Assembly: GCA_947501605.1 (NCBI GenBank)
Contig: CANMWZ010000012.1
Location: forward strand, 42,795-106,794
Direction of reading: 5' to 3'
DNA length: 64,000 nt
DNA from: Planctomycetota bacterium
GTDB taxonomy: Bacteria; Planctomycetota; UBA1135; UBA2386
The translations under genes were made by a program, and so were the position numbers. The notes under the pieces are model-generated. The model worked only from the letters and a program-made list of their open reading frames with translations, was not told the origin of the DNA and did not search any database. This document shows, one piece after another, positions 18,170 to 46,518 of this stretch; the stretch's first letter is position 1, and every line of letters begins with the position of its first letter.

Positions 18170-18443
18170 CGACCCAGCGTAGCGGCACTGGCGCGCGACC
18201 GGTCACGCGGCGGTGTTCGGACCTGCGATGTCCGGCAGCCACCCGATCGATTCCCTGCTTCGGCACGCCGAGTTCTTGCGGCGTCTGAATCGACGCTTTC
18301 CTCGCCTGCCGCGCTGACCACGCGACCGCTCTCGCCGCCGTTCCCGTGCTCGCCGAAGTGGTACGCGGCGGTCAAGCTCTGGATGCAGTGACTGGCGCGC
18401 AAACGACGCCCGCACGGCTGGGACTCGGTATGTTCTGCCGCGC

Positions 18444-18692
18444 ATGTCGCACGCACCGCCAGCTAAGAGCCCACCATCGGGCGCGCCCAATCGACACAAG
18501 ATGGTACTGCTGACCTGGATGGGAATCTGGCCAACGATCACGACCGTGCTCTGGCTCTTGCTGCCACACCTCCTGCCGCACTTCCCGCTGCCGGTGGTCA
18601 CGCTGATCGTCACCGCGATCGTGGTGCCGTTGATGGGCTACGTGGTCATGCCGTTCTTGCTGCGGCGGTTTGGGGGCTGGGTTCGGCAGTGA
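18444..18692 (+). CDS. Small 2-TM membrane protein resembling the membrane tail of ABM-fold membrane proteins
   Basis: PNRHKMVLLTWMGIWP...VPLMGYVVMP...FGGW. Confidence 0.65.
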   Translation: MSHAPPAKSPPSGAPNRHKMVLLTWMGIWPTITTVLWLLLPHLLPHFPLPVVTLIVTAIVVPLMGYVVMPFLLRRFGGWVRQ

Positions 18693-18795
18693 CTGCAGGA
18701 GTCGGCGAATCGCGCGCGGTGCCGCGTGTGCTGCGCGCGCCAGTCTGTGGCCGCCCATTCGCCCAGCGAAGCCCCTCTCGGTTACCCTTCGCCCG

Positions 18796-22091: not shown

Positions 22092-23249
22092 CTACTTCTT
22101 CTCTTCCGGCACCGGGAAACCTGCCGGCAACTCCACTGGCCCGTTCTCCACGTCGCCGCTCCCGGGAAGGTCCGCCAATAGCACCGTCATCGACACCGGC
22201 GCGTCTTCGCGCTTCTTCTGCACGCGCATCCCCACGGCGTCGCCGGCCATGCGTGCGCCGATCAACATCTGCAGGTGCGCACCGTTGCGGATCGCAATGC
22301 CGTCGATGTCGACGATCACATCGCCCTTGCGCAGCCCGGCCTGTGCCGCGACGCCATCTTTCGGCGTGCCACTCAGGCGCGCGCCAGGACCCAAGTGCGC
22401 CGGATCGAGCGTGACCCCGAGCCAACCGCGCTGCAGTCGTTCGCCCTGCTTCATGCGTTCGATCAGCTCTGGGATGTCGGCGATCGTCGAGCAAAAGCCG
22501 ATGCCCGAGTCGTACCACTCCACACCGGCATCGCGACCCGATGGCGACAACGGCACCGCGAGACCCAGCACCTTGCCCTCGACGTCGACCACCGCGCCGC
22601 CGTAGTTGGCGGGTGACGTGTAGGCGTCAATCTGCAAGGCGCGACCAAACTGCCGCTTTTGGGCGCTGACGATCCCGAAGTGCACCGTCGGCTCGTCGCT
22701 AGCGAACGTCCGGCCCAGCACGAACGCCCACTGCCCGACCCGCACATCCTTCGGATCGACCAGTTGCGCAACCGGCAGACTCGTTGCCTCGATCTTGAGC
22801 AGCGCCATACCGCGGCTGGTGTCCTCGCCCTTCCGCACCGCATGGAAGGTCTCGCCGCCAGGAATACCGACCAGGATCGTGGTCGGGTCGTAGTTGAGGC
22901 AGAACCGCGACACCAGGATCCAGCCGTCCGCGCCAACGATCAGGCCCGTGCTCTTGCCTTGCGATTGATGGAAGCCCGGGTCCTTCAGCGGCAGGTTGCC
23001 TTTGCGATCGGGATTGGCCGGCGGCTTCGGCACCGGTCGCGGTTGCGCTGGAGCTGTCGAGTCGACGGGCCCGTCATCGCCCAGAACTCGGCGCGTGCCG
23101 CCAAAGGTCTCGATCGTCACGACCCACGGCGCGGCGTGTTCGACCGCCGCCCGGAGCACGGGCTGTAGACGCACGAACTCGTCGAGGTCCGCGCGCTGTT
23201 GCGCACTCGCGAGAGCGCCGAGCACGACGGCAACAAGCCACCGCCTCAT
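22092..23249 (-). CDS. HtrA-like trypsin+PDZ protein, catalytically degenerate
   Basis: Signal peptide, STGLIV, VRVGQW...GR, DAYTSPANYGG (Ser->Tyr), GWLGV PDZ. Confidence 0.85.
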   Translation of the reverse strand: MRRWLVAVVLGALASAQQRADLDEFVRLQPVLRAAVEHAAPWVVTIETFGGTRRVLGDDGPVDSTAPAQPRPVPKPPANPDRKGNLPLKDPGFHQSQGKSTGLIVGADGWILVSRFCLNYDPTTILVGIPGGETFHAVRKGEDTSRGMALLKIEATSLPVAQLVDPKDVRVGQWAFVLGRTFASDEPTVHFGIVSAQKRQFGRALQIDAYTSPANYGGAVVDVEGKVLGLAVPLSPSGRDAGVEWYDSGIGFCSTIADIPELIERMKQGERLQRGWLGVTLDPAHLGPGARLSGTPKDGVAAQAGLRKGDVIVDIDGIAIRNGAHLQMLIGARMAGDAVGMRVQKKREDAPVSMTVLLADLPGSGDVENGPVELPAGFPVPEEKK

Positions 23250-24337
23250 TGCTTGTCCTCCGCGAGTTCAAGGTCTCTCTGCATCACCTTGGTGCCGCGC
23301 TTCCAGGTCAGCATGACCTTGTCGCCCGGTTCGAACTTCTTCAGCACGTCGTCGAACTCCTTGCAGCTACGTACCGAGTAGTCGCCGATGCGGACGATCA
23401 GGTCGTCCGGACGCAGCCCGATCGCCGCCGCCGGCGAATCGCGCTCTGCACGGTCGACGTAAGCGGGCGGCGAAGCCCGGCCAGCCTGGCGAAACAACAC
23501 GATGCCGGTGCGCACGGGGCGCCGATCGCTCTCGGTCACCTCGCGCAAATCGCCGTTCACGTGCTCGCGCAGGTACGGCAGCAGATCGCGCGACGGAATC
23601 GCAGCCGACAGCATCGTGTTGGTCTCCTTGCTCTCGAGCAATCGCATGTTGAAGCCGATCCAACGGCCGTCGAGAGCAAATAGCCCGCCGCCGTAGTGGC
23701 CCGGGTTGTTGCACGCGTCAGTCAGGATCAGATCGCCGTCGTACTGCACGTCGGCGAGACGAAAGCGCAATGCCGTGTTGGCCCTGCCCACCACGATGCC
23801 GAACGTCGCTGAGACCTTCTCGGAGAACTCCGCAAGGCGGAAACAGTTGCCAAGCGACACGACGAAATCGCCGGTCCGGTAGAGCGGCGCATCGCTCTCG
23901 TCGGGCCAGATCGGGTGCAGCAGACCCTGGCATTGCTCCGGGTCGATCTTGAGCAGACGCACGCCGAGTTTGCCGTCCTCGGGCAGCACTTGTGCGTCGT
24001 GCACCGAACCGTCGTAGAGCACCACACGCGTCCGTTCCTTTTGCACCAACACTTGGTCCAACGTCAGCACGTGACCCTTCGCACTGACGACGATGCCCGT
24101 CGCGTACGGAGTGATCGTCGAGAGGCCTGAGGCGCCGTGCACCTTGACGATGCTCGGCAGCAGCCGGTCGATCGCGCTCTCGACCTTGGTCGCCGGCGCG
24201 CGCTCGGCAAAGGCGTAGCTCGCGTGCACATCCGCGGACTGCGCTTCCGCAGGCGGCTTCGTTGCATCGGGCAAGTTGGGTTCCCCTTGCGCCGCGAGAT
24301 CTGTCAGGGCCAGGAGTAGAACGAGGTACCTCTTCAC
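23246..24337 (-). CDS. HtrA-like trypsin+PDZ protein, catalytically degenerate
   Basis: GTG start in GTGA overlap; ATGIVVS..GHVLT, DACNNPGHYGG (Ser->Tyr), SPAAAIGLRPDDLI PDZ. Confidence 0.85.
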   Translation of the reverse strand: MKRYLVLLLALTDLAAQGEPNLPDATKPPAEAQSADVHASYAFAERAPATKVESAIDRLLPSIVKVHGASGLSTITPYATGIVVSAKGHVLTLDQVLVQKERTRVVLYDGSVHDAQVLPEDGKLGVRLLKIDPEQCQGLLHPIWPDESDAPLYRTGDFVVSLGNCFRLAEFSEKVSATFGIVVGRANTALRFRLADVQYDGDLILTDACNNPGHYGGGLFALDGRWIGFNMRLLESKETNTMLSAAIPSRDLLPYLREHVNGDLREVTESDRRPVRTGIVLFRQAGRASPPAYVDRAERDSPAAAIGLRPDDLIVRIGDYSVRSCKEFDDVLKKFEPGDKVMLTWKRGTKVMQRDLELAEDKQ

Positions 24338-26121
24338 TGCGGCCTCCCGAACACGGAGTCTTCGACTTGGACGTCGGTCGCGTAGCTCGCCACTCGCCAA
24401 CCGCGGTCGAACACGCCGTCGCGGATGACGCGAACACTGCTGCCATCGCAATGCAGTTCGAGCTTCTCGCGGCGCACGGGATCGCGCAGCGAACAGCCCG
24501 CCGCACTGCCGTCGGCGAACAGAAAGAACTCGAGTTCCCCGTCGCCTGGGAGCGAGTAGCGGTAGGCCGGGCGGCCGAGCACGTGCACGCCGCCGAGAAG
24601 AAGCGCCTCATCGAACCGCTCGCCGCGATCACAGCCGATCCACAGCAGTGGATTGCAGCGCACGAGCCGTTGCAGCAACGCGTCGCCTTCGACATTGGGG
24701 TCGGCTTCACTCCGCGTGCGAAGGAAACGCACGCCATCGCGGTCCATCGCGGTGGCTTCGCGCGCCATGTCGCGCACTATCGACCACTTGGCGCCGTCGC
24801 GGTCCGCGAATGCGAGTGTGACCGTGCGCTGCGCCGTGGGCGATGTCGCGCGCGCCCTCATCGCCTTGGTGGCGAGCTGCCGTTCGATCAGACTGCTCAG
24901 GCGCTCAGTGTCCGTTCGCGCATCCTTGCTGCTGCCGGTGTCGAGACGCGCCAAGCGGATGTCGACGAAGCGCTCGTCGCCAAAGCTGTTGTCGACGTTC
25001 TCTGGGCGATAGCCGAGTTCGATCCAGGCTCCCGCCGGCAACACGCCGATGCGCGTCGCCAGTTGGTTGGCCGAACGCACATCTTCGCCTTGGAAGTGCA
25101 CGATCTCGTCGCCGAGCTTGATGCCAGCGACCGCGGCGACCGAGTCCTTGTAGAGCTGCTGCACGAAGACACCGTGCCGCTCGTCGCCGTTCTTCGTCTT
25201 CTTGAACCAGGCACTCAGGTCCAGCGTGCCGTGCTCCGCGTGGCGACCGGCGAGCAGGTCGGGCAAGAAGTTGCGCACCTGATTGCACGCGATCGCAAAG
25301 CCGACGCCGACGTTGACGCGACCGCGATCCCCGAGCGAGATGCGGCCGTTGATGCCGATGACTTTGCCGTCCTCGTCGAACAGCGGCCCCCCCGAGTTGC
25401 CCGGATTGATCGCTGCATCGACTTGGATGCAGTCGGGATATACCAGCATGCGATTGCCCTGGCCTTCCTGGTACCGATGCGTGCCGGAGACGATGCCAAA
25501 GGTCACCGTCGGCGTGAAATCGGTCGCCAGCAAGAACGGGTTGCCCATGGCAAACACCGTCTGGCCGACGAGCAGCGCGTCCGAATCGCCGAGTTCGCAG
25601 CAGGGCCAGGTTTGGCCGTCGAGCTTTGGCAGCAGCCGCAGCACCGCGAGATCGCTGCCGGGATCGACACCGAGCACCACGGCTTCATAGAGCTCGCCGT
25701 CCGGCAGACCGACCTTCTTGTTGCGCCAGTGGTTCGTGCCGGATGGCCAGTGCTGCTGCTTCCACGCGTCCTGCCAGTCGCTGACGAATCGGTTCTCGTC
25801 TTCGCTGCTGGCTGCGGGATTGGCGGCCTTGAAGGTCTGCAAGGCTTCGGCCGGCGGCGCCGGCGGTGCGGGCAGCACCTTGTCCTTCGGCGTCTTGTCG
25901 TTGGTGTCGGCACCACCGATGACGTGGAAGTTGGTCAGCACATAGCCGCGAGGGTCGATCACGACGCCGCTGCCGCCGCCTGGGGCTTGCATGTCCATCA
26001 CCGAACACACGGCGGGAGCACACCGGGCAATGACTTCGACGCGGCGTTGCTCCGCGACACGCACGGCGGCGACCGAAGGGTCTTGAGGCCAGAGCGCGAT
26101 CAACAACGACAACACCAGCAT
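24334..26121 (-). CDS. HtrA/DegP-like serine protease with PDZ and C-terminal extension
   Basis: GSGVVID, LTNFHV (His), SDLAVL (Asp), DAAINPGNSGGPL (Ser). Confidence 0.92.
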   Translation of the reverse strand: MLVLSLLIALWPQDPSVAAVRVAEQRRVEVIARCAPAVCSVMDMQAPGGGSGVVIDPRGYVLTNFHVIGGADTNDKTPKDKVLPAPPAPPAEALQTFKAANPAASSEDENRFVSDWQDAWKQQHWPSGTNHWRNKKVGLPDGELYEAVVLGVDPGSDLAVLRLLPKLDGQTWPCCELGDSDALLVGQTVFAMGNPFLLATDFTPTVTFGIVSGTHRYQEGQGNRMLVYPDCIQVDAAINPGNSGGPLFDEDGKVIGINGRISLGDRGRVNVGVGFAIACNQVRNFLPDLLAGRHAEHGTLDLSAWFKKTKNGDERHGVFVQQLYKDSVAAVAGIKLGDEIVHFQGEDVRSANQLATRIGVLPAGAWIELGYRPENVDNSFGDERFVDIRLARLDTGSSKDARTDTERLSSLIERQLATKAMRARATSPTAQRTVTLAFADRDGAKWSIVRDMAREATAMDRDGVRFLRTRSEADPNVEGDALLQRLVRCNPLLWIGCDRGERFDEALLLGGVHVLGRPAYRYSLPGDGELEFFLFADGSAAGCSLRDPVRREKLELHCDGSSVRVIRDGVFDRGWRVASYATDVQVEDSVFGRPQ

Positions 26122-26160
26122 CGCGACTCCGTCAGTTCGGGGATTCGGTCGTTCGGGGGG

Positions 26161-27390
26161 TCACTTCGGCGCGACAGTCGAGGTCTGCAGTACACGCGCT
26201 TCTGCGAAGGCACACAGGTCACCCAGATCGAAGTCGTTGCCAAAGTCGGCTTCGAGCGTGAGTTCGCGGCAACGCGCCAGTTGGAGGTGGATCAACCGCG
26301 GCTGCGAACCAGGTCCACTCAGCGTCACCTCGAACAACAGCTTGCCATCCGTGAGCACGCGGAAGATCGCGTGGGCCTGTGGGCCGGAACGTTCGTCGAA
26401 ACCGAGGACCGCCTCGAACACGTCGTAACGGCCACCGAGTTCGAAGGTGAGGCGCGTGCGCGGCACCATCACGAGGCCACGCGCGTAGGTCACGCCACCG
26501 AGCACGATTCCGGGGCCGGCCGGTGACCGATCGACAGTCCACGGCCAGACACGATCGAACGCAGCAGTTTGCTCCACCCTTGGCTGCATCGATGAGAGCC
26601 ATGCGAGCTTGTCGCTCTGGACGTCGAGGCCGAGCAGGCGCGAAGCGGGCACTTCCAAGATCGCGCCTTCGTCAAGCTGCAGCTTCACGCTGGCACCAAT
26701 CGCCAGCAGCTTGCCAAAACAGACTTCGCCTCCGGCCAACGAAGCTTGCACACGCGGCGCCGGCAGGCGATCCGGCGCGAAGCCAGTGTTCTTGCCGAAC
26801 ACGATCGCAGCCACACTGTTGTCACCTCGCAGCGGAAACTCGTAACTCGAGCCACGGAGGTCGAAGTGCACGTTGCCGTCGCGCACGGCCTCGATCGTGA
26901 CGCCAAATCGCTGCGGGGCGCCGTCCTTGACCACGTACAGGTAGTCGCGGTTCTCATCGGGCTCCTTGCGATCGGCGGTGAAGGTCTGCGGATCGTTGGC
27001 GCGCGAGCGCACGGCGGCAACCGTGGTCAGTGGCACTCGAAGCTCGCCCCCGGACGCCAGCTCGATCAGCAGCTGATTGGGTGTTGAGGCAGTGGCGGCA
27101 ACACCGTCGATCCTGGTAGCCGGCAACAGCGAGCCCGATCGCAACCACACGCAGAAGTTCGCCTTCGCCGGCGCTTCGACCCCGGCGGCGTCGAGCCGCA
27201 AGGACATCACGTCAGCAAGTGCGATCGTCTCAGCGCCGATCTGTAGCTCGTTGGCGTCGCCGACGACGATGCCAGTCAGCGTGCGACCGTCAATCGTCAC
27301 GATCGTGGCAGCCGACCCCTGCGCAGAAGCCGAGGCAAGGCCAAGCGCGACGCAGGCCGCAGCGACCGAGTATGTCCGTGCGCGCGTCAC
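26161..27390 (-). CDS. NPCBM/NEW2 domain exported protein
   Basis: GTG start in GTGA overlap; C-terminal LGGVTYARGL.M.PRT.LTF.LGG.Y..FEA.LG.D...FRV..DGK...L.L..DFG; N-terminal small beta repeats. Confidence 0.8.
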   Translation of the reverse strand: MTRARTYSVAAACVALGLASASAQGSAATIVTIDGRTLTGIVVGDANELQIGAETIALADVMSLRLDAAGVEAPAKANFCVWLRSGSLLPATRIDGVAATASTPNQLLIELASGGELRVPLTTVAAVRSRANDPQTFTADRKEPDENRDYLYVVKDGAPQRFGVTIEAVRDGNVHFDLRGSSYEFPLRGDNSVAAIVFGKNTGFAPDRLPAPRVQASLAGGEVCFGKLLAIGASVKLQLDEGAILEVPASRLLGLDVQSDKLAWLSSMQPRVEQTAAFDRVWPWTVDRSPAGPGIVLGGVTYARGLVMVPRTRLTFELGGRYDVFEAVLGFDERSGPQAHAIFRVLTDGKLLFEVTLSGPGSQPRLIHLQLARCRELTLEADFGNDFDLGDLCAFAEARVLQTSTVAPK

Positions 27391-28424
27391 TTGCCGTTGT
27401 TGCCCGTGCCAAGCTTCTTGTAGTAGCCCTCGAGCAGCTTGCGGTACTGCGGCGGCAGCTTCGTCTGCACCTGCGATTCGATCTGCTTCCGATCCTTCTC
27501 GGGCATCGGCCCCCATCGGTCGGCGAGGCTGACGCGCTTCTCGAGGTTGCCGATGCGGCCTTCGCCTTCGGTCAACGCACTCTGCGTCGCGGGGTTGTTC
27601 GAGGGACCATTGCCATTCGGCGGACCACCGGACTGCTTCTCTTGCTGCTCGTACATCTCGATGAGCTCGCTGAGCTCTTCGATCATCTCCTTCTGCTCGA
27701 CTTGGATCGGTTCGTTGGTCTTCTGCTTCTTCAGGTCGCGCCCGACCTTCTTCATGCGGTCGGCGAGCACGTGGAGCCGACTCTCTTGCTGGCGCTCTAG
27801 TTCAGCGACGCGCTGCTGCGCCGTAGCCCGGAAGCGTTCACTCGCCTGAGGAAACCATTCCATAAACGCGCGGAACCGCGGCAAAGCCAAATCGCCGCGA
27901 GGGATCTCCGCCAGCGCCTGGGCATAGAAGAAGGCCGTTTCGCCATCGAGCGGCGTCAAGTTGATATCGAGCTGGAAGTACTCGTTCAGGATTTCGACCG
28001 CGCGCTCGGGGTCGTCACTGTCGAGGAACAGTCGCGCCATGTGGTAGCGCACATGGCCGCCGAGCACCGTATCGGAGTCTTTGGCGAGGATCTCAGCGAG
28101 CGCGAGCACGGCCTTGGGATCCCCGTCCTCACCGAGCCTGACCGCGGCGTCGAAGTCCTTGCGCAAAGCGCGCATCAGAGCATCGGCAGCACGTTCGACG
28201 CCGACCTCGCCGACCTCGCGGGTGAACTGCTCCAACTGCGCGTCAGTGGCGCCGAGCTTCTTCGCATGCGCCTCGTAGGCCGCGCGATCGAATGGACGAA
28301 AGGGGCTCTGCACCGCCGGTGCCGAGGCCGCGGGCTCGTCCTGCGCGCGCAACACGCCGAACAGCGACGATGGTGCAAGACACAGAAAGGCGAGCGCGGC
28401 GGTCAGCTTGCTCGAAAGCGTCAC
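27387..28424 (-). CDS. Exported TPR/helical protein with C-terminal P.YR.L.E.YY motif
   Basis: Signal peptide, TPR-like helices, WGPMPEKDR...LPPQYRKLLEGYYKKL; GTGA overlaps on both sides. Confidence 0.75.
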   Translation of the reverse strand: MTLSSKLTAALAFLCLAPSSLFGVLRAQDEPAASAPAVQSPFRPFDRAAYEAHAKKLGATDAQLEQFTREVGEVGVERAADALMRALRKDFDAAVRLGEDGDPKAVLALAEILAKDSDTVLGGHVRYHMARLFLDSDDPERAVEILNEYFQLDINLTPLDGETAFFYAQALAEIPRGDLALPRFRAFMEWFPQASERFRATAQQRVAELERQQESRLHVLADRMKKVGRDLKKQKTNEPIQVEQKEMIEELSELIEMYEQQEKQSGGPPNGNGPSNNPATQSALTEGEGRIGNLEKRVSLADRWGPMPEKDRKQIESQVQTKLPPQYRKLLEGYYKKLGTGNNGK

Positions 28425-30313: not shown

Positions 30314-30324
30314 GGGTCGTGCTC

Positions 30325-32643: not shown

Positions 32644-35150
32644 AGGAGGTTGAACCTCTTGCGCAGTAGCCACTCGAGCGAAAGCGCGATCAGCAAGATC
32701 GCGACGGTGATCCAGCCGTCCCAGATCGCGTGCGGCGTGCGGTAGGTGTCCGTGGCGCTGCGCGAGGGGATCTCGCCGAGCGCGGCGAACAGAGCCGCTG
32801 GGGTATCGAACAACCGACCGCCATTGGCGGCTGCGATCGCAGCAAGTTCGGATCGATCCACCGGACCCTCGCTCTCGATCTGGGCGGGGACCACCTGGAA
32901 CGGCACTTCCACACTCTTGCCGCCCGCCGCCAGCGTTCGCAGCCGGTAGACACCGAGTTGGTCGGGTCGCAGCTGCAACTGGTAGGAACCGGGCACCTCG
33001 GCGACCGGCTCGAGCTTCAGCGGTTCGAGTTCTTTGCCCTCGCGTTCGAGCAGCAGCTCATACGTCGGCGACACCAGCGGCTGCATCTGTTCGTCCTTGG
33101 CGTCGACGGTGATCGTCAGCGCGTCGCCGAGCTCGACCTTCTCGTCGCTGATGCGCAGCTGGAGGCGGCTGTTGCCGGCGTGAATGCGGCCGTCGAACAA
33201 GAAGCGGATGCCCTTGACCCACAGACGGTCGTAGGCGTCCTCGAACAACGAACGCCACCGATAGGTCTCGTCGATGCCGCTGAAGATCACGCGCCCTGCT
33301 CCCACGAAGTGCGAAGCCACGAGCGGCATGCCGCGGCCATCGCGCTTCAGGCGAGGATCGCAGTTCTCGTGCACCACGAGCACGGTTGCGGCGGGCTTGA
33401 GTTGCTTGACCGGGAACGCCAGGTGGAAGCCCGGGAGCCGCGACCACATCAAGCGACACTGCTCGCGAGACTCGGTGATCCGCGTGATCTTGCTGGCGAC
33501 GCCGTCCTCGCCCTCGGGAGTCAGCGTGTAGGGATAGAGCCTCGTATGCGCGAGCCCAAGACCGAGGTTGGCGACACTCTCGGCGTAGACGAGATCAGGA
33601 ACGATCGGCAGCAGATCGACGAGCGACTTGGTCGGAGAGGTCTCTTTGAACGAGTCGATGGCGAACTTCTCGCCAGCGATCCACCACAAGCCGCAGCCAT
33701 TCTCGAGCACGTGCTTGCGCAGCAACTCGCAGAATGACGGTGTCAGCTTGCTGGCGTCCGGATCGATGGCGATGACCACGTCGAACGGGTCGAGCTGCTT
33801 CTCGTCGACTGGCAATGCGTCAAGACGCACCCCTTCGTCACCGTCTTGAGGAAAGTTCGGATCAGCGCTCTGCAGCCAGCAGCTGACATCGATCGTCTTG
33901 TCGCGAATCAGCAAGTTGCGCAGGATCTGGAACTCGTGGTTCGAACCGCCCGCAAGCAACAGCACGCGCGCTCGTTCGCCCAACACTTCGACCGGCAGGT
34001 TCTTCTGATGCCGCTCGGGGGCGGGCGGTTCGCCGCTCGGCGGTTCGATCACGGCGCGGTAGACAAAGCGTCCAATCTCCACCGAAGTGATGTCCTTCCA
34101 CTCGACGACGGCTTCGCTGACGGCGCCGCCCACTTCGAGTTGCTGCGTGCGCACCACCGACTCAACGCCCTCGGCGTCGGTGCGCAGCAGGCGGATGGTC
34201 ATCGGCATGGCGTCGTAGCCCTGCGCGACAACGGTGGCGCGGACTTCAAACGGGTCCTTCTGAAACACCTTCTCTGGCGCCTCGAAGTGGCCGATTGCAA
34301 CCGTCTGCGTCGCCGACGAATCGCCGATGCCGAGCACGAAGGTGTGCGGCACCTTGCGCTGATTGAGCATGCGCGCAATCTCGGCGGCCTGCGGGCCCGC
34401 GTTGCGCCGGCCGTCACCCAGAATCACGACTGCGGCGATCTCCGAGTTGCGGCTCTTGTCGAGCGCCGAACGCAGGGATCCACCAAGGTTGGAGTAGCGG
34501 CCCTTGGCGGCGATCGCGGCAACATCGAGGCGCGGCGGCGAAAGCCTGCCTTGGTCGTCGCGCGGCGCCGCAGTACTCGAGCTCGAGGCGCCATTGGCCG
34601 GCGCCAGCAAGGGCAACGCATCGATCCCCGACGAATAGCCGTAGAGCATCACGTCGTTCTTGGCCGCAAGTGCGCGGGTGAGCGCGCCGTCATCGTGCGC
34701 CAGCAGCGCCTTGAGCAACTCGATACGCGGCACCGATGCGGGCTCAGCGATCCCGATGCTGCGCCAACCGTCAGCCAGCGCCCGGACTTCGTCGCGGCGG
34801 TAGGGATCGAGCTGTTGCATCGACTGGCTGGTGTCGGCCAGCAGGATTGTGGTGCCGGGGCGCGTGTCGTGCTTCACCGCCACGAGATTTGGCTCCAGCA
34901 ACAGCAGCGCGGCCGCGAGCACCGCGAGTCCGCGAAGGCTCACCAGCATCAGGCGTTGCCGCGAGGTCAGGTTCTTGCCATCGCGCCGGTAGACGAAGCT
35001 GACAAACAGCACCAGCAGCAACAGCAACAACAGCACGGCGAGGCCGAGGCCACCGCCGGGGAAGCTGGCGAACTCAAACTGCATCTCGACACCATCGGTG
35101 GCGATGCCTTGGAGGTTGGCGATCCAGCGGAGCAGTTCCTGCATGGTCAT
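32640..35150 (-). CDS. Membrane-anchored vWA protein with GATase-like domain
   Basis: Start reassigned to 35150; N-terminal TMs, MIDAS DTSQS and ILGDG, GAGRV....DETYRWR, C-terminal TM EWLLRK. Confidence 0.8.
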   Translation of the reverse strand: MTMQELLRWIANLQGIATDGVEMQFEFASFPGGGLGLAVLLLLLLLVLFVSFVYRRDGKNLTSRQRLMLVSLRGLAVLAAALLLLEPNLVAVKHDTRPGTTILLADTSQSMQQLDPYRRDEVRALADGWRSIGIAEPASVPRIELLKALLAHDDGALTRALAAKNDVMLYGYSSGIDALPLLAPANGASSSSTAAPRDDQGRLSPPRLDVAAIAAKGRYSNLGGSLRSALDKSRNSEIAAVVILGDGRRNAGPQAAEIARMLNQRKVPHTFVLGIGDSSATQTVAIGHFEAPEKVFQKDPFEVRATVVAQGYDAMPMTIRLLRTDAEGVESVVRTQQLEVGGAVSEAVVEWKDITSVEIGRFVYRAVIEPPSGEPPAPERHQKNLPVEVLGERARVLLLAGGSNHEFQILRNLLIRDKTIDVSCWLQSADPNFPQDGDEGVRLDALPVDEKQLDPFDVVIAIDPDASKLTPSFCELLRKHVLENGCGLWWIAGEKFAIDSFKETSPTKSLVDLLPIVPDLVYAESVANLGLGLAHTRLYPYTLTPEGEDGVASKITRITESREQCRLMWSRLPGFHLAFPVKQLKPAATVLVVHENCDPRLKRDGRGMPLVASHFVGAGRVIFSGIDETYRWRSLFEDAYDRLWVKGIRFLFDGRIHAGNSRLQLRISDEKVELGDALTITVDAKDEQMQPLVSPTYELLLEREGKELEPLKLEPVAEVPGSYQLQLRPDQLGVYRLRTLAAGGKSVEVPFQVVPAQIESEGPVDRSELAAIAAANGGRLFDTPAALFAALGEIPSRSATDTYRTPHAIWDGWITVAILLIALSLEWLLRKRFNLL

Positions 35151-35160
35151 CTCGGGCCGC

Positions 35161-37407
35161 TCAGCGGCGTCCGAACCTCCAGGCCAGAAGGGTCTCGAGC
35201 AGCAGCGCGAGCAACATGCCAAACCCGAGCAGGCGCCACAATTCGCCCTCGCTGCCACCACTCCCGAGGCCCGCGCTCTCGTCGCGGAACGTCACTCGAT
35301 CGTGTATCTCGGGCGGGAACACCCGCGTGAAGTCCGCAGTCGCAAGGCGCACGAGGCGGCTCTCGAAGATGTCGGGATTGCGGGCAAACACGCGCGTCTC
35401 GACCGTGCCGGAGTGCAGTCTGAGTTGGACGTCGTAGCAGCCGAGCGACGTGAGTTCGGCCATCGGCAGCGCCAGCTCCAGTGCGCGCGGGACGGACTCG
35501 GCGGTCGTCGTCGGGCTCGTGGCCGGCGAAGCGACTTCGGGCAGCGTTGCCGTCAGCGTCCGCTCGTCACCATCTTCGGCCAACGCCCGTACGACGACGT
35601 CGGCTTCGTAACTGCCCGGATCGAGTTGCAGGCGGTAGATGCCATCGGGCTGCAGGTTCCGGCTCGCGAGTTCACGGGGGCGGCTGGCAAAGCGGTGCAC
35701 CTGGTGCGCCATCACCACATTGGCGTCGGTGTCCGGCCAATTGGACCAGTGCTTGTCGGCCGAGAACGCGAACAGCACGACTTCACCGCCGCCGCTGCCG
35801 AACGTGCGGGTGACGATTGCCGGCGGGCCGTCCGCATCGCGCATGCGCGCGAGAACCGCGGCGTTGGCACTCCGCTCCTCGACGATCGTGAGGTAGCGCT
35901 TGGCCAGCACGGCATTGTCGATCAACAACTGCAAGACATCGCCGATCTTGCCGCAAACAGGATGGCTCTGATCGGTCAAGACGACGTGTTCGCGTCGATC
36001 CGGGTCGCCGGCGATGTCGCCGAGCGGCAGCGGCAAGAGGCCCTGCCCGCCACGCCACATCGCGTCCGTGTAGCGAACCGGGTCGACCTGCGCACCGACG
36101 AAGATCGCGATGCCGCCACCAGCGGCCGCGAACCGTTCCAACTTCTCGACCGTGCTGCGCGGCGGCACCGGCACGTTGCACAGCCAGATCATGTCGAACG
36201 GAGCGAGGTCGAGTTCGGCGAGCGAACTCTCGGCGACGACCTCGGCCGCGATCCCCGACGGTTGATCGCTGCCCGGGTCGAGCGCGACCTGCAAGAACAG
36301 CGTTTCGCCGCCTTCGCCGTCCTCGGGCTCCCCATCCACGAGCAACACGCGCGAACTCGGCAGCACCGGCAACGCGAGCGCACGGCGGTCATCGACCAGG
36401 TAGTGGTCGACCGCGACGAAGGACGCCTCGACCCGATGATCGCCCGGCTGGTGAAACGTGTGCACCACTGCGACCGAGACGCGTTCACCGGGCGCGAGCG
36501 GCGGCAACGGGCGCGCAACGCGGGTCTTGCCGTCGACCTCGATCGCGAGCTCACCGGCTGCCGTGGCATCGAGACCGAGGTTCTGCACATCGATCGCGAG
36601 TTCGACCGGTACGCCCGCCGTCGCCAGACGATCGACGCACCGGACCGCGACGATCGCGAGGTTGTCGGCGTCGCGCGAACCGACACCCGTGGCGTGCAGG
36701 TGTTCGTTCTGCGGATCGAAGGCTGCAATCGTCTGCAGCAACTTGCCGCGTGGCTTGTCGTCGTCGCCGATCCAGTCGATCGCCCGGAGGTCACCGACGA
36801 GGTAGTAGTCGTTACGACTGGCCTCCTTCATCGCCGTCGCGCGGGCGCGGGCATCGTGGAGGACGCTGCCAAAGTCTGCCGTGCCGTCGCCTACCCGCAT
36901 CTCCGCCAGCACTGCCCCGACCCGGCGTTCGAGATCTTCGCCAACTCGCTGCGCCCACAAGTCAGGCTGCGCTGGTCGGCTCGCCCGCAGGATCGACAAC
37001 AGGTCCCCACTGCGCGAGTCGGCGAGGGCTGTCACGAGCTGTCTGACCTGGTCCTGCGCCTTGTCCCAGAGCGCAACACTGCCACTCCGCTGGCGCATCG
37101 AGGCGGTGTCGTCGAGCACGACGACGTGGTGCGTGACCGTCGAAACGAGACCACCGCCACCGAGTTGGGGCCGCGACACCAGCATCACCAACAGCAGCAC
37201 CGCCAGTGTTCGCAGCAACAGCACGAGCCATTGCTCCATGCGCAAGCGCTTGCGGTTGCGCTCGAGAGCCTTGAGCAAGTACTCCATCGCAGCCCACGAC
37301 ACCTGCTGGAACCGTCGGCGATTCAGCAGATGGATGAGGATAGGCACTGCCGCGAGTGGCACCGCCCAGAGCAGCATCGGGTTGAGGAATGAGAACGCGA
37401 AGATCAC
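35161..37407 (-). CDS. BatA N-terminal domain + vWA + CARDB/GATase-like membrane protein
   Basis: FLNPMLLW...PILIHLLNRRR...WAAMEYL (BatA double-TM), VLDDTASM, WSNWP, C-terminal TM ELWR...LLET. Confidence 0.88.
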   Translation of the reverse strand: MIFAFSFLNPMLLWAVPLAAVPILIHLLNRRRFQQVSWAAMEYLLKALERNRKRLRMEQWLVLLLRTLAVLLLVMLVSRPQLGGGGLVSTVTHHVVVLDDTASMRQRSGSVALWDKAQDQVRQLVTALADSRSGDLLSILRASRPAQPDLWAQRVGEDLERRVGAVLAEMRVGDGTADFGSVLHDARARATAMKEASRNDYYLVGDLRAIDWIGDDDKPRGKLLQTIAAFDPQNEHLHATGVGSRDADNLAIVAVRCVDRLATAGVPVELAIDVQNLGLDATAAGELAIEVDGKTRVARPLPPLAPGERVSVAVVHTFHQPGDHRVEASFVAVDHYLVDDRRALALPVLPSSRVLLVDGEPEDGEGGETLFLQVALDPGSDQPSGIAAEVVAESSLAELDLAPFDMIWLCNVPVPPRSTVEKLERFAAAGGGIAIFVGAQVDPVRYTDAMWRGGQGLLPLPLGDIAGDPDRREHVVLTDQSHPVCGKIGDVLQLLIDNAVLAKRYLTIVEERSANAAVLARMRDADGPPAIVTRTFGSGGGEVVLFAFSADKHWSNWPDTDANVVMAHQVHRFASRPRELASRNLQPDGIYRLQLDPGSYEADVVVRALAEDGDERTLTATLPEVASPATSPTTTAESVPRALELALPMAELTSLGCYDVQLRLHSGTVETRVFARNPDIFESRLVRLATADFTRVFPPEIHDRVTFRDESAGLGSGGSEGELWRLLGFGMLLALLLETLLAWRFGRR

Positions 37408-37417
37408 TGGCGCCGAC

Positions 37418-38470
37418 TCAACGTTGGTAGATGGGGACGAGAGCGAACGGCAACTGCAGGATCGTCAGCGCGATGGCGGTGCCGAAGACCGGACCGCAAC
37501 CATCGCTCTCCCACGAACCATCCTTGCGCTGCAAGCGCACGAGATAGGGTCCGATCTTGGCGAGGTAGTCGTCCCAGTCCTTACCGCCGCGCTGGTACAG
37601 CGCCTGCGAGAAATAGAGCTGCGTGTAGAAGTGATGGCCCGTCGTGTCGGACGTCGGATTGACGTTGCGCATGACGTACTTCATCGCCTTGTCGACGAAC
37701 GGCTGATCGTCGTAGAAGCCGGCGTTGTAGAGCACGGCGACGCCGGCAGCGCTGATGGCGGGCCGGCTGGAGCCGCGCGATCCGAGGCTGTAGCTGATGC
37801 CGCCGTCCGCGTTCTGGCACTTCTTGATGTAATCGACGGCACGATCGATCGTCTTCTTGTCGACGACGATGCCGTCCATCCGACAGGCGCGCAGCGCTTG
37901 CACTTGCGTGACCGTCACGCTGCCTTCGTCACCACCTGAGTCGGGCGTGTAGATCCAACCGCCGGCGCTCGACTGCGCGCGCTCCACCAGCTTCACCGCC
38001 CGCGTCAGCACGCCCTGAAGTCTCTGTTGGCGCTGCGCGTCCTCTTCCATGCCATAGACCGACGCGAGATACAGCAACGCGAAGCCGTGCCCGTACATGT
38101 TCCGGTTCTCGGTCGACATGTCGGTGATGACGCCAGTCTGCGGATCGGCCTGCTTCATCAAGAACTCCATCGACTGGCGCACTTCGCGCCAATGCACGCC
38201 GCGGGTGGGCGTCGATCCCGATGCGACCAGAGCCATGCCAGCAAGGCCGGTCATCGCGGTGGGATACGTGCCGTGACCACCAGCGTTGCGCCACGAGCCA
38301 TCGGTCGACTGGTTGCGTTTCAAGTACTGCAGCCCGCTCTGGATCGAAGTGTACATCTCGCGCGAGATGCCGCGCGGCAGCAGCTCTGGGACCGCTTGTG
38401 CCCTAGCAGTTGCGCCGAAGAGCAGGATCGTGGCGAGAGCAGACACAGCGAGTGCATGTGGCGTCGTCAT
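37418..38470 (-). CDS. Exported prenyltransferase/squalene-oxidase repeat (alpha-alpha toroid) protein
   Basis: ATG 38470 in ATGA overlap; QW-like repeats QSTDGSW, QSSAGGW, QNADGG, QRKDGSW; MYGHGFA; LPIYQR-like end. Confidence 0.88.
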   Translation of the reverse strand: MTTPHALAVSALATILLFGATARAQAVPELLPRGISREMYTSIQSGLQYLKRNQSTDGSWRNAGGHGTYPTAMTGLAGMALVASGSTPTRGVHWREVRQSMEFLMKQADPQTGVITDMSTENRNMYGHGFALLYLASVYGMEEDAQRQQRLQGVLTRAVKLVERAQSSAGGWIYTPDSGGDEGSVTVTQVQALRACRMDGIVVDKKTIDRAVDYIKKCQNADGGISYSLGSRGSSRPAISAAGVAVLYNAGFYDDQPFVDKAMKYVMRNVNPTSDTTGHHFYTQLYFSQALYQRGGKDWDDYLAKIGPYLVRLQRKDGSWESDGCGPVFGTAIALTILQLPFALVPIYQR

Positions 38471-41235
38471 TGCTTGCCCTCCATGTAGCGGTAAAGGAGC
38501 TGTTGCTCCTGCTCGAGTGCAGGTAGGTCGTTCAGGGCGCGCGACACGTCCATTCGGGCGAGATGCCATGCGAGGCGAACGCGGCGGTCGGTGACCAACG
38601 GCTGCATGCGGTCGAGTGGCGCGAGCGACCTCACGGCTTCGGTCACCGACAATTCACGCGCGTAGTCGATGGCGAGAAGACTCGCACGTTCGCGGTCGGC
38701 TGGCGTGGCGTTCGAGCTGGACGCAAGGTCGGCGACGAGCGCATCGAAGGCATCTTGCTTGCGGCCCACCTGCACGAGGTAGCGCGCACGCTCTTCGACG
38801 GTCCCACTGCGAGCTGCGAGTTCGTTCAACGCCGTCGCACTGCTGTAGAGCTCGATGCCGGTTGCGTAGCAGACTGCGAGCCATGGACCGGCTGAGAACA
38901 GGTTGTTGGGCCCAGCGAGCGGTTCGTCACCGAGGCCAAACGACGGCAGAGTCAATCGGTTGAACGCAGCAGGCCTCTTCACATCCAGCACGAGCACTTC
39001 GCGATCACTCGGCAGCAAGACAAAATCGCCAACCACGCAGCCGCGCCCAGGCCATCGCGTCAATCGTTCGCTGGGGCGCGGGATCTCGATCGACCAACGA
39101 ACGATGCCCGTCGCGATCTCGATGCCGACGAGATGGTCGCGCAAGTCACCCGAAGCCTCCGCGAACAGCAAGGGTCCGCTCACGCCGAGGAGGTAGCGGA
39201 TCTTGCCGTAGGGCGCGTAGCGGGAGGTGCCGTCGAGCATCCAGACGGGATCGCCACTAGCGCCGTCGAGACAGAACACCATGTCGGTGTCGCAGGCCGC
39301 AAACACCACCGAGCCGCCGATCTCGAAGATCGCGCTCGGCAAGAAGCCTGGAAGGTCTGCCTCCGAGAAGGCACTGCTGAAGCCAAACGGTGAGTTGCCG
39401 TTCTCGCGCTTCCGTTTGGCCGGCCGTCGGCGCAGCGGGTCGTCCCGCTCGTACTTGCGGATCCATCGCAGGTCGCCAGCAAACGCGTCGACGGCACCGA
39501 CGGCACCGGCGTTGGTGAGCATGTAGGCGAGGTTGCCGATCACGTGCACGCGGGCGCCCGGCGCCTTGAAGTAGCTCGTGCCGCCGCCGTGAATGCGGGT
39601 GTGCCACAACGGCTCGCCGGTGCGCCGGTCGAGGCACTGCAACTCGTAGGCGCCGTTGCGCAGTGTCGGTACGAGCAATCGTTCGCCGAACAGGGTCGGA
39701 GCGGCGAGGAAGGTCACGTCCGCAAGGCCGTCGTCGCCGGCGCAGAAGTCCTTCGTCGACCACGCGCGTTGGCACTCAGGCTTGCGATAGGCAACGATCT
39801 CGTTGAGCTTCAGCGGATCGACGCTTTGCGTGACGCGGTTGTAGCCAAGGACCGCGTAGTAGCGCTCTTGGTCCTCGACCGGCGCCATGAGCGCAAAGTC
39901 GTATGCCGGCACTCGTGGACGCGGTCGCATCTCCTGAGGCTTTGGCGGCAACTGCTCGCCGTCGCCTTCGACTTGCAGCACGCCCGAAAACGACTCTGCG
40001 ATGCGCAGCCGGAAGTTCTCGAGAAACAGCGTGCGAGGCAAAGCCGCACCGCCGCCACTGAATGCGACCTGGGTGCCGACGCCGTACTTCGACCCCGGCG
40101 GCGCTGAGTTGGCAACGGTCTCACTGCCAAACATGAAGATCGAGTCGCTGCCGCGTCGGTCCTTGATCGGTTCGTAGGGATTCGACCCGGCGAAGCGATA
40201 GACCCACATGGGTAGCAGCGTGGTGCTCGCCTCGGTGAGCCACTCGATGTTGGCGCCCGGTTGCAACGCCGTGGTCGCCGGCTGCGCGTCGCTGGTCGCA
40301 AAGAGCGGGTGCTCGGGCAACTGACTCACGGGCTGCAGCTCGCCCATCAGGCGCAGCGACTCGTCGGGGAAGTCCGCGGCGATCTTGCGCGCCGCATCGT
40401 TGGCCGCACCAATCTCGCCAGCAAGACGAAGGCACAGTGCGATCTTGAATCGGCACCACAGCGGCGAGATTCCCAGCTTGGCCAGATTGGCCGCCGGATA
40501 GAGCTCGAGAACATCGCGTAGCACCTGAACCGCGGCGCGGTATTGGCCAGCGTTGAGATGGCGGTCGGCCAGCACCTGTTGCGCCGTTCCGGCTGCGAGA
40601 GTCGGAAAGTAGCGCAGCGCCACCTGCTCGAGGTCGCGCAGCGAACCGCTGGTCTGCGCCTGCGCCAACATCTCGCCAGCTACCGCCTCGAACAGGCTTT
40701 GATAGAGTTCGATCCCGGTCGCGGGCATCGCCGCGAGGTACTCCTGGCACAGTCGACCGGCAGGGCGATAGACGCGGCCGTCGGCAGAAAACACTGCCTG
40801 CCGCGGGTCGATGGCCGCCGCGTCGGCCGCCGGCGGAGCGGGCGCTTCGCCCTCGACTGGCGGCTTGCGCTCACCTTCCGCGGCTTCAGGCGCTGACGGT
40901 GCGGGCGTGGGCGTCGCCTGGGTCTCGCCTGCTTCGAGCGGCATCGCCTCCAGGGTCCGCCCCTCGACCACGGACTGCAGCACCTGGATCGCGTCGGCGA
41001 AGCGCTCCTCGGTCAAGAACTGGCGTGCGCGCCGAACGAAGCGGTCGAGGTTGGGGCTCTCGAACAACTCGACCGGCGGGCCGGAATCGCCAGTCTCGTT
41101 GCCGCTCTCCGGCGCCTGAATTGCCCCGCCCGCGCGCCCGACCTGGATTCGCAGTTGCTGACCGCGCACATCACTGCCCAGCAGAGCGGCGACGGCGCAG
41201 AGCACAGCCGGAACGGGCGGCAATAGGAAAATCAC
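38467..41235 (-). CDS. Exported TPR + PQQ-like beta-propeller protein
   Basis: GTG 41235 with CAGGAG RBS; TPR-like N-terminal half; CLDRRTGEPLW, AVDAFAGDLRW, CLDGASGDPVW, IATGIVRW blades. Confidence 0.8.
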   Translation of the reverse strand: MIFLLPPVPAVLCAVAALLGSDVRGQQLRIQVGRAGGAIQAPESGNETGDSGPPVELFESPNLDRFVRRARQFLTEERFADAIQVLQSVVEGRTLEAMPLEAGETQATPTPAPSAPEAAEGERKPPVEGEAPAPPAADAAAIDPRQAVFSADGRVYRPAGRLCQEYLAAMPATGIELYQSLFEAVAGEMLAQAQTSGSLRDLEQVALRYFPTLAAGTAQQVLADRHLNAGQYRAAVQVLRDVLELYPAANLAKLGISPLWCRFKIALCLRLAGEIGAANDAARKIAADFPDESLRLMGELQPVSQLPEHPLFATSDAQPATTALQPGANIEWLTEASTTLLPMWVYRFAGSNPYEPIKDRRGSDSIFMFGSETVANSAPPGSKYGVGTQVAFSGGGAALPRTLFLENFRLRIAESFSGVLQVEGDGEQLPPKPQEMRPRPRVPAYDFALMAPVEDQERYYAVLGYNRVTQSVDPLKLNEIVAYRKPECQRAWSTKDFCAGDDGLADVTFLAAPTLFGERLLVPTLRNGAYELQCLDRRTGEPLWHTRIHGGGTSYFKAPGARVHVIGNLAYMLTNAGAVGAVDAFAGDLRWIRKYERDDPLRRRPAKRKRENGNSPFGFSSAFSEADLPGFLPSAIFEIGGSVVFAACDTDMVFCLDGASGDPVWMLDGTSRYAPYGKIRYLLGVSGPLLFAEASGDLRDHLVGIEIATGIVRWSIEIPRPSERLTRWPGRGCVVGDFVLLPSDREVLVLDVKRPAAFNRLTLPSFGLGDEPLAGPNNLFSAGPWLAVCYATGIELYSSATALNELAARSGTVEERARYLVQVGRKQDAFDALVADLASSSNATPADRERASLLAIDYARELSVTEAVRSLAPLDRMQPLVTDRRVRLAWHLARMDVSRALNDLPALEQEQQLLYRYMEGKQ

Positions 41236-43734: not shown

Positions 43735-43759
43735 GCAGCGCGCTCACTCGACCGTGGCC

Positions 43760-45463: not shown

Positions 45464-45466
45464 GTC

Positions 45467-46513: not shown

Positions 46514-46518
46514 GAGGG

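Follow-up and report, generated by a model that had tools for sequence, protein, structure and literature searches.

An enlarged MoxR-DUF58-BatA/vWA envelope operon of Planctomycetota, a candidate periplasmic protein-remodeling machine

What Bat/MoxR-DUF58 operons do has been an open question for more than two decades. Bat operons (Bacteroides fragilis batA-E, Borrelia BB0170-BB0176, Leptospira bat) and MoxR-DUF58 (MRP) clusters, of which Rhizobium RL3499-RL3502 is reportedly one, share with the locus described here a BatA hairpin, paired MIDAS vWA membrane proteins and a TPR subunit; in other lineages the planctomycete operon resembles them also in carrying MoxR and DUF58 in cis. The present locus, 11 genes in a window (the whole stretch of DNA that was analyzed) of 64,000 nucleotides from a Planctomycetota bacterium, is a MoxR-DUF58-BatA/vWA ('Bat') envelope operon in enlarged form; an earlier sequence-only reading had proposed an undescribed machine, and the core proves instead to be a variant of a described module. 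It differs from the described operons in having no Pfam or NCBIfam match to a BatD/SH3-type subunit (the g8 product carries small beta repeats that have no family assignment), in the Ig-GATase-like-Ig arm inserted in each vWA protein, in the extra three-gene DUF4175-like stalk, toroid, propeller, NPCBM and swappable HtrA/thioredoxin head, and, here, in having no ATPase genes in cis. We tentatively favor the view that the operon encodes an inner-membrane-anchored, ATP-driven periplasmic protein-remodeling machine.

Layout, conservation and transcripts of the operon

All 11 open reading frames lie on the minus strand, as the sequence-only reading had it, with six 4-bp stop/start overlaps reading ATGA (38467-70, 32640-43, 23246-49) or GTGA (28421-24, 27387-90, 24334-37). 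The remaining four gaps of 10, 10, 11 and 39 bp agree with the 10-39 bp that it gave, one 10-bp gap becoming 16 bp if an alternative ATG at 35144 is used. The genes and a divergent neighbor are:

38467..41235, minus: g1, 922 aa, exported TPR and PQQ-type beta-propeller protein (Pfam PQQ_2, E 1.8e-11; weak TPR_6)
37418..38470, minus: g2, 350 aa, exported (alpha/alpha)6 toroid, squalene-hopene cyclase-related (model, 1gsz alignment, motif counts)
35161..37407, minus: g3, 748 aa, BatA hairpin-vWA (DxT/SxS)-Ig-GATase-like-Ig-TM (PF07584, E 1.3e-17)
32640..35150, minus: g4, 836 aa, 2TM-vWA (DxSxS at 106)-Ig-GATase-like-Ig-TM (structure model)
30325..32643, minus: g5, 772 aa, protein with three TM segments, a cytoplasmic loop and periplasmic Ig-like and helical parts (hydropathy, Atlas)
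28421..30313, minus: g6, 630 aa, exported coiled-coil with Gly-rich Cys/Sec linker
28661..28663, minus: Cys551 codon (TGC) in the g6 linker, within which orthologs have an in-frame TGA
27387..28424, minus: g7, 345 aa, exported TPR-like and helical protein with G/S/Q linker and DUF4175-like C-terminal motif
26161..27390, minus: g8, 409 aa, exported, repeated small beta domains and NPCBM (PF08305, E 1.7e-21)
24334..26121, minus: g9, 595 aa, HtrA protease with PDZ, intact His66-Asp157-Ser243
23246..24337, minus: g10, 363 aa, pseudo-HtrA with PDZ, Ser replaced by Tyr215
22092..23249, minus: g11, 385 aa, pseudo-HtrA with PDZ, PxNYGG, Tyr216 at the serine position
41473..43734, plus: divergent gene, 753 aa, exported HEAT/beta-repeat protein

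The domain labels assigned earlier hold, through Pfam for g1, g2, g3, g8 and g9-g11 and through the structure model for g4, the Pfam search giving no match for g4, g5, g6 and g7. The statement that every product is exported or anchored holds for g1-g8, in which hydropathy places three hydrophobic segments each in g3, g4 and g5 and an N-terminal one in g1, g2, g6, g7 and g8; g9-g11 fall below the hydropathy cut-off, their N-termini being hydrophobic over a short length only, so that their export is presumptive.

Among 20 relatives fetched (picked for long contigs among 28 g7-positive relatives) the g1-g11 order is intact in 13, colinear to the contig end in 4 and rearranged in 3; because it is intact in 13 of 20, the arrangement is not due to chance. 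The synteny survey that had been proposed thus came out in favor of a conserved gene order, which is also largely retained in many other families of the phylum: at 20 phylum loci picked on g10, g9-g10-g11 are adjacent in 19 and g6-g7 lie upstream in 17. Gene g1 is ahead of g2 in 19/20 relatives and at loci L050, L054 and L155, and g2 is duplicated in 4/20 relatives. The divergent gene keeps its divergent position in 18/20 relatives; its product matches the N-terminal part of g8 (HH 98.2) and is a possible accessory subunit.

No sigma-70 promoters were found at the locus (0 vs 1.3 expected), and the 10 terminators found against 11.7 expected are uninformative. The locus is present in metatranscriptome libraries of three studies, with 8 of the 10 gene junctions bridged by RNA contigs among the 32 pieces listed (there are 153 further pieces) and the g8/g9 and g9/g10 junctions unbridged among those listed; given the flat depth in X1/X2 and possible DNA carry-over, the RNA contigs show no single transcript.

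The membrane core and its motor

In g3 a BatA double-TM domain precedes a vWA domain with MIDAS (PF07584, TIGR02226; also a CARDB match). Proteins g3 and g4 are full-length paralogs (HH probability 99.7) that both have a MIDAS, its residues in g4 being invariant in 47 sequences. Conservation in g3 is 73-80% for the hairpin and basic cytoplasmic loop vs 39-50% for the outer domains; the cytoplasm-facing BatA part is thus the most conserved region even without an ATPase in cis, and Glu58 of its loop is invariant in g3 and kept in 11/11 MoxR-linked BatA homologs. The g4 structure model (pLDDT 87.7) reads vWA-Ig-GATase-like-Ig, an arrangement made uncertain by its pTM of 0.65, and its structural matches include BatB (3ibs, Z 15.7, the best vWA match) and 2gk3 (Z 22.3). 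The vWA structures align to two parts of the model, residues 1-180 and about 700, and residues ~765-797 are predicted from the model to complete the vWA fold right before the last TM segment. The GATase-like domains have the class I glutamine amidotransferase fold; g4 has no invariant Cys or His, and g3 has Cys410 in 82% and His482 in 95% of sequences, figures that do not imply a triad arrangement.

MoxR and DUF58 genes are absent in cis from the window and present in cis in orthologous operons and in a paralogous operon on contig C20. One or both occur in cis at 9 of the 20 g10-picked phylum loci and at L050, L054, L144 and L150, and in the 13-gene full form of genome G138 MoxR-DUF58 sits between g2 and g3; the connection to MoxR that had been drawn from this operon is upheld. 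Here the pair is most likely supplied, judging from phylogeny, by the C20 operon: among the genome's own six MoxRs that of C20 alone falls in the clade of in-cis MoxRs (95/87), and a C20-type DUF58 is found in 38/41 relatives, with DxSxS in 11/11 checked. The g3 and g4 vWA domains had been cast as MIDAS adaptors for MoxR; they are predicted to be periplasmic, a topology demonstrated for the BatA-vWA protein BB0173 in the work reported as PMC5700661, and so cannot be adaptors for a cytoplasmic MoxR. The likely adaptor is DUF58, absent from the operon here.

Such a core would also suit a dedicated secretion or surface-assembly system, in which particular exported proteins would be transported or assembled by the membrane core and the stalk and processed by the HtrA module as they are assembled. 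IFT52/GIFT is a structural match for the GATase-like domain of g4 (Z 14.5), PMC5898192 presents as a proposed secretion system an archaeal module in which MoxR and vWA+Ig are accompanied by a GldG-like flavodoxin-fold protein, RipA export is described as aided by MoxR1 in PMC12067865 (a mycobacterial interaction preprint made no mention of MoxR), and a secretin gene lies ahead of a partial operon at locus L121. Against this, the secretin was seen once, and the 56 neighbors scanned of 156 called ORFs include neither a channel of the outer membrane nor a cargo gene that recurs (and no glycosyltransferase or recurring regulator). We regard secretion as unlikely.

HtrA triplet, toroid, stalk and linkers

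The operon had been credited with three HtrA-like products and a dedicated protease head, a description that does not hold in that form. Only g9, with trypsin fold and PDZ, has the His-Asp-Ser triad, kept in 36/36 complete orthologs; g10 and g11 are pseudo-proteases, without the catalytic serine in 32/32 and 34/34 orthologs (counts that leave out one non-operon HtrA in each survey, of relatives and of phylum loci, and one g9 truncated ahead of the serine). The g10 residue at the serine site is variable outside the window, g11 has an invariant PxNYGG there across orthologs, and in distant g10 proteins (n = 20) the Asp is kept in 6 and the His is one place off in 3. Both profiles match DegP/DegQ structures (E 1e-53 to 1e-64). 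Longer forms of g11 gave 466 matches; most of the 120 listed are 610-760 aa long and belong to trypsin and PDZ families. Active g9 and dead g10 are fused in 7 genomes, which suggests, at the level of sequence, a 1:1 g9:g10 ratio; MamO, the nearest pseudo-HtrA precedent, crystallized as a monomer according to PMC4794232, so that a g9-g10-g11 heterotrimer is not guaranteed.

The head is also optional: in four triplet-less operons a secreted CxxC thioredoxin-TPR gene (signal peptide, WCGxC) occupies the HtrA slot, standing next after g8 in 4/4 triplet-less loci with a readable next gene. In five genomes (G021, G012, G015, G179, G178) the triplet lies away from the core, with 0.74 Mb between g10 and g7 in the complete genome G178. 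These separations, the cores found without a triplet and the ATPase missing in cis would fit a co-regulated set of at least two separate complexes (Bat core; HtrA module), uncoupled from any ATPase in this lineage. However, g7 (at least 200 bits) and g10 occur together in 41/42 genomes, 34 within 15 kb (29/30 and 22 without the profile genomes), and the BatA cytoplasmic loop remains highly conserved; separate complexes seem improbable.

The g2 model (pLDDT 93.5) aligns with 1gsz (Z 27.6, rmsd 2.6, 282 residues aligned), thioester domains (Z about 20) and glycoside hydrolases being further matches; the family has invariant Tyr/His residues and a conserved C-terminal PIxQR. The cyclase DxDD site was placed on g2 at what we take to be its position in SHC. 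At that register, set through HMMER repeat anchors, 41/41 g2 proteins read x(M/T)(Y/H/F)(G/C)HG, as in the form xMYGHG; a DxDD string occurs somewhere in 17/41, the DWDD of the window protein lying on an outer helix. A class II terpene cyclase role was rejected on the protonating DxDD motif, missing at the pocket helix in 41/41, a protein prenyltransferase beta role on the zinc-ligand motif DxC(Y/F), found in 0/41, and a thioester-domain role on CxEQ, likewise in 0/41. The toroid would be an enzyme of new chemistry if the operon encoded a glycan- or lipid-modifying complex, with NPCBM and OST48-like arms positioning substrates. OST48/Wbp1 are the top Foldseek matches of g4 (E 2.7e-10), g8 carries the NPCBM domain, and the invariant Tyr/His and the cyclase and glycoside hydrolase likenesses point the same way; but the scanned neighbors hold no glycosyltransferase, g2 has neither the cyclase motif in register nor the other two motifs, and the swappable genes encode folding or proteolysis enzymes, making this reading decidedly improbable. 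In the remodeling machine that we favor, g1 is predicted to be the client-binding subunit.

Protein g5 is similar to DUF4175 proteins over their N-terminal part, with an Atlas score of 0.95 against a 1169-aa cluster in which 37% of the members are DUF4175. No direct PF13779 match was obtained for g5, g6 and g7, whose likeness is indirect, through Atlas and through a protein of 1048 aa that itself matches DUF4175 below the cut-off. A helix repeat is common to g6 and g7 (HH 96.5); profile comparison gave no likeness of g5 to g6 or g7, or of g1 to g7, and the lack of fused g7 forms among 8000 longer candidates is weak evidence. Complex prediction, which covered the g6-g7 pair, gave it a weak pass (score 0.56, best control 0.00; at least 72% contact agreement between runs, partner pLDDT at least 72): the mark is reached by 116/157 solved pairs vs 2/215 mismatched pairs, but scores between the mark and 0.60 come from only 18 solved pairs and from both mismatches.

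The 52 distinct g6 linkers (one g6 without the anchor motif is left out) contain TGA in 14 cases, Cys only in 11 and neither in 27, the last a count against the favored model. Stops within g6 matches are TGA in 15/15, duplicates included (four in g5/g8 that fall where alignments end are left out), and g7 has an in-frame TGA in nine genomes, its linkers carrying Cys or TGA in some orthologs. The in-frame UGA of g6/g7 orthologs aligns to Cys, the residue encoded in the window, with downstream coding conserved; a bSECIS hairpin passes at 10/14 g6 codons vs 106/520 random codons, although these sequences are related to one another and Gly/Pro codons form pairs in any case; and SelA and SelB are present in 5/5 genomes tested. 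The TGA is likely to encode selenocysteine. A sensing or defense device, its flexible Cys/Sec linkers serving as bait or redox sensors and its pseudo-HtrAs gating one signaling protease as in MamO/MamE, is very improbable, since the need of MamE for a pseudo-HtrA in activation, the low-complexity linkers with variable Cys/TGA, the thioester-like toroid and the partial rescue of B. fragilis bat mutants by reductants (reported in PMC3557215) are set against the missing CxEQ, a stable rather than hypervariable gene content and the lack of a recurring regulator among the neighbors scanned.

The proposed machine and its relation to known systems

The remodeling machine would grip, remodel and, as needed, cut envelope proteins, using ATP through a cytoplasmic motor, MoxR-DUF58, that the C20 operon is predicted to lend. 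Pairing of the paralogs g3 and g4, joined by g5, would give a membrane core of nine helices; a MoxR hexamer would hold DUF58, whose MIDAS would bind an acidic cytoplasmic face (candidate g3 Glu58), and an ATP-driven pull via the last TM helices would reach the C-terminal element completing each periplasmic vWA, making the MIDAS clamps cycle in a manner reminiscent of integrin inside-out switching. The g5-g6-g7 products would constitute a DUF4175-like protein in three pieces, a stalk bearing g1, g2 and g8 as binding modules, and g9, g10 and g11 a heterotrimer of HtrA type that has one active site and whose dead subunits may bind substrate or gate activity; in other lineages the CxxC thioredoxin-TPR would stand in for HtrA and may act on the Cys/Sec linkers. 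Doubtful as yet is the full version of this scheme, in which MoxR-DUF58 would drive the periplasmic vWA clamps through the nine-helix core by integrin-like trans-membrane power transmission, bringing AAA+ remodeling to an ATP-free periplasm, with an interchangeable head (single-active-site HtrA heterotrimer, or thioredoxin-TPR on selenocysteine linkers) and one motor for two paralogous machines. Deletion of bat in Leptospira biflexa, for which PMC3557215 reports no growth, shape or oxidative phenotype, counts against the machine model.

By joining recognizable enzymes (HtrA or CxxC thioredoxin) to a Bat module, the variant points to protein quality control, and a single catalytic serine, a pair of MIDAS motifs and a cytoplasmic glutamate give direct handles on it. 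It also brings forward a possible HtrA heterotrimer encoded by three genes and two families of candidate selenoproteins. Genetics looks feasible, because complete genomes from other families of planctomycetes contain the operon and a g11-type protein has been recorded for a named species, Maioricimonas rarisocia.

Among known systems, the MoxR-vWA beta-propeller ternary conflict systems (Kaur et al. 2020) also have MoxR, vWA and TPR/propeller near the membrane in planctomycetes; there the propeller is fused to vWA and DUF58 goes unmentioned in the available part of PMC7159879, whereas here the vWAs are BatA-anchored and gene content is stable, and a cytoplasmic conflict-type system was rejected for the operon because the architecture differs. 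NorQ/NorD and other MoxR-vWA pairs place a MoxR hexamer and a MIDAS adaptor on a membrane protein, the pair acting on its surface carboxylates as described in PMC9976466, and DUF58 likewise has DxSxS; the target here, rather than a respiratory enzyme, would be a dedicated core that spans the membrane and carries clamps in the periplasm, and a metal-cofactor client is not evident. The archaeal arCOG01314 predicted secretion module, as outlined in PMC5898192, combines MoxR and vWA/Ig with a membrane-anchored flavodoxin-fold domain; the likeness is one of architecture, the domains being fused in g3/g4 and stalk, toroid and protease being extra. With HtrA/DegP and MamE/MamO the operon shares trypsin+PDZ proteins and the pairing of active and inactive forms described in PMC4794232; unlike MamE/MamO, it has no TauE domain or magnetosome context, and many planctomycete families keep its combination of one active with two distinct dead paralogs; fusions of g9 with g10 and the invariant Tyr at the serine site of g11 are further differences.

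Layout and spread of the operon

The eleven genes of the envelope operon (window 22092..41235, minus strand; g1–g11 in transcription order) are indeed same-strand ORFs with six 4-bp overlaps, as the sequence-only reading had described, and the remaining gaps measure 10, 10, 11 and 39 bp. Its domain calls held in Pfam for the propeller g1, toroid g2, BatA g3, NPCBM g8 and the trypsin plus PDZ of g9–g11, whereas g4–g7 have no Pfam match. Envelope targeting, proposed for every product, is seen as three hydrophobic segments in each of g3–g5 and as a signal-like N-terminus in g1, g2 and g6–g8, but g9–g11 have short hydrophobic starts only.

The expected recurrence of gene order in relatives is borne out: g1–g11 are intact in 13 of 20, colinear up to a contig end in 4 and rearranged in 3, of which G021 and G012 contain no HtrA gene within the sequence retrieved and G015 has the HtrA genes in altered order. 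Counting the own genome, 29 of 41 relatives carry g7, and named records near the g2 toroid come mostly from Planctomycetota assemblies. In a phylum sample of 251 genomes g10 was found in 44 and g7 in 105 (42 of these at 200 bits or more). Both occur in 41 genomes, no more than 15 kb apart in 34, with the remaining seven having them on separate contigs (six) or apart in a complete genome (one); the g7 profile was built with sequences from 12 of the g7/g10 genomes, and with these removed co-occurrence is 29 of 30, with 22 within 15 kb. Among 20 loci chosen on g10, the HtrA triplet is adjacent in 19 and g6–g7 lie upstream in 17. The envelope operon is real and spans the phylum.

Neighboring features of the window are:

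14269-19608: unremarkable planctomycete genes, namely a polyphosphate kinase 2 and a pair with DUF1553/DUF1549 and DUF1501
19762-21864, minus strand: same-strand 700-aa ORF immediately 3' of the operon, metallo-beta-lactamase/rhodanese joined to 1-Cys peroxiredoxin, which could be genuinely fused or have arisen by loss of a stop codon; adjoins the operon in 1 of 20 relatives
41473-46738: divergent 753-aa gene, M48 peptidase (a second envelope protease beside the operon) and 423-aa gene, flanking it in 18, 15 and 14 of 20 relatives, respectively

Proposed membrane core and motor

The g3 and g4 products are paralogs over their full length (HH 99.7), with conserved MIDAS residues and a conserved Glu in the final TM helix of each. 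In the predicted g4 model (pLDDT 87.7, pTM 0.65) the structure closest to the vWA domain is BatB (Z 15.7, rmsd 4.1, 187 aligned), the GATase-like domain matches 2gk3 (Z 22.3, rmsd 2.3, 204 aligned), and a likeness to OST48 lies in the GATase-like plus Ig part. Because vWA structures align along the model from residue 1-3 to about 700, the vWA domain is predicted to carry an inserted Ig-GATase-Ig arm, and its last element would run into the final TM helix.

The MIDAS domains had been cast as ATPase adaptors. However, in BB0173, which shares the BatA-vWA-TM plan, the vWA domain is located in the periplasm (PMC5700661); on this topology the g3 and g4 vWA domains are predicted to be periplasmic and therefore should not plug an ATPase. 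DUF58 carries DxSxS in 11 of 11 sequences and would suit the role of NorD (PMC9976466). Three distant loci have one more vWA gene, standing alone, within the operon or next to it (L118:7308-8540, L127:11805-13043, L129:17028-18386).

The window operon contains no MoxR or DUF58 gene. In orthologous operons MoxR-DUF58 sits between g2 and g3 in L050, L054, L120, L144, L150 and G138, the last being the full 13-gene form, and MoxR and/or DUF58 lie at or near the operon at 9 of 20 phylum loci. The own genome (G000) has six MoxRs, one of them in a second operon:

G000:C20 about 62900-79675 (L103, L104): complete operon, paralogous to that in the window, that extends past the contig end, with MoxR, DUF58, BatA-vWA, vWA-GATase, propeller (about 1500-1800 aa), toroid and g5-like genes

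In a 16-row tree only this C20 copy among the own MoxRs joins those encoded within operons (support 95/87; long-branch warnings apply to four other own copies). C20-type DUF58 was found in 38 of 41 relatives. The g3 BatA hairpin and basic loop are 73-80% conserved versus 39-50% for the outer domains, and the hairpin is the sole part of g3 that matches C20 BatA. We infer that the window and C20 operons probably share a cytoplasmic partner.

Proposed stalk, and the toroid

Both g5 and g6 resemble DUF4175-containing Atlas clusters (0.95, 37% DUF4175, and 0.96, 13% DUF4175, respectively). A 1048-aa Gemmataceae protein with a DUF4175 match under the cut-off matches g6 (HH 96.5, for which coiled-coil composition is a possible cause) and ends in the g7 C-terminal motif (HH 85); NCBIfam has no model above cut-off for g6 or g7. 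In the pairwise complex prediction proposed as a check, g6+g7 scored 0.56 versus 0.00 for the best control, with contact agreement of at least 72% and partner pLDDT of at least 72. The mark that this passes was attained by 116 solved pairs out of 157 and by 2 mismatched pairs out of 215. Scores of 0.60 or below among the pairs attaining it, however, come from only 18 solved pairs and both mismatched ones, so that the model weakly suggests a g6–g7 complex.

Among 52 distinct sequences of the Gly-rich g6 linker, 14 have an in-frame TGA, 11 have Cys only (Cys551 in the window) and 27 have neither. All 15 stops inside g6 matches are TGA, and conserved coding runs on for about 80 residues. A bacterial SECIS model (PMC13188914) fits 10 of the 14 g6 TGA codons versus 106 of 520 random codons, although the rows are kin and Gly/Pro codons pair; SelA and SelB were both found in 5 of 5 genomes tested. 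The main text of that review does not contain "planctomycet", "coiled" or "DUF4175". Nine genomes have a TGA in the corresponding g7 linker; in four of these it falls inside a CxxC-rich cluster, and one of the four, fully fetched, has a thioredoxin-TPR gene. Because the residue is optional, the linker Cys or putative Sec would be a modulator rather than core chemistry. The g7 linkers of L125:10806-12008 and L139-L143 contain CxxC clusters, in some cases together with one or two TGA codons, which points to a metal-binding or redox motif.

The g2 model is a confident (alpha/alpha)6 toroid, nearest squalene-hopene and monodomain cyclases. Its pocket helix reads MYGHG, with neither thioester nor zinc motifs found; invariant Tyr/His residues suggest a binding pocket, and g2 may have some enzyme activity. 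Five more toroid paralogs (24-38% identity) lie outside both operons on own contigs C31, C1, C7, C4 and C28. At L051:5342-10927 propeller and toroid matches share one stop-free frame, a possible g1-g2 fusion; the close relative L048 has them apart.

Proposed protease head, swappable slot and known systems

Three HtrA-like genes had been read as a protease head, and trypsin and PDZ domains are present in all three, but the catalytic serine is retained by g9 alone. His-Asp-Ser is kept in 36 of 36 complete g9 orthologs; the serine is missing in 32 of 32 g10 sequences, some distant copies of which retain the Asp or a shifted His, and is replaced by Tyr in 34 of 34 g11 sequences. Both serine-less copies keep DegP/DegQ architecture, and g9-g10 form a single stop-free ORF in G009, G015, G030, G037, L120, L124 and L126. 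HtrA proteins are known to assemble as trimers, so the triplet may form a 1:1:1 trimer with a single active site. Pairing of active and dead HtrAs has a precedent in MamE/MamO (PMC4794232 and PMC8833152), although MamO crystallized as a monomer (PMC4794232). The g11 proteins of other families measure about 650-700 aa and carry a second PDZ domain (L130:15975-17969, L131:1994-4075, L133:2102-4075; protein records P0002-P0120), and some source names of longer g11 proteins give an esterase-like extension.

At six loci g8 comes after a g7 of intermediate score, and the sequence retrieved there contains no HtrA genes. Two of these loci stop at or close to a contig edge; in the other four, which represent three families and gave no g10 match in the phylum search (0 of 4), the gene directly 3' of g8 encodes a thioredoxin-TPR protein that has WCGxC and a signal-like N-terminus; one locus has, in addition, a cyclophilin gene three genes further along. 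The best clue to function is that two folding-type enzymes alternate in this slot; it favors quality control.

Our best model, held tentatively at somewhat under even confidence, is a periplasmic protein-remodelling machine, ATP-driven and with a modular head. The gene inventory of the operon and its evolution are directly shown, whereas complex formation, force transmission and clients are predictions. Openly available papers on Bat, MoxR and pseudo-HtrA proteins gave no account of this planctomycete operon, its triplet or the swap. Bat function is still described as elusive in PMC3557215, and a comparable archaeal module is interpreted as secretion in section 3.2 of PMC5898192. The operon is a variant of the MoxR-DUF58-Bat kind.
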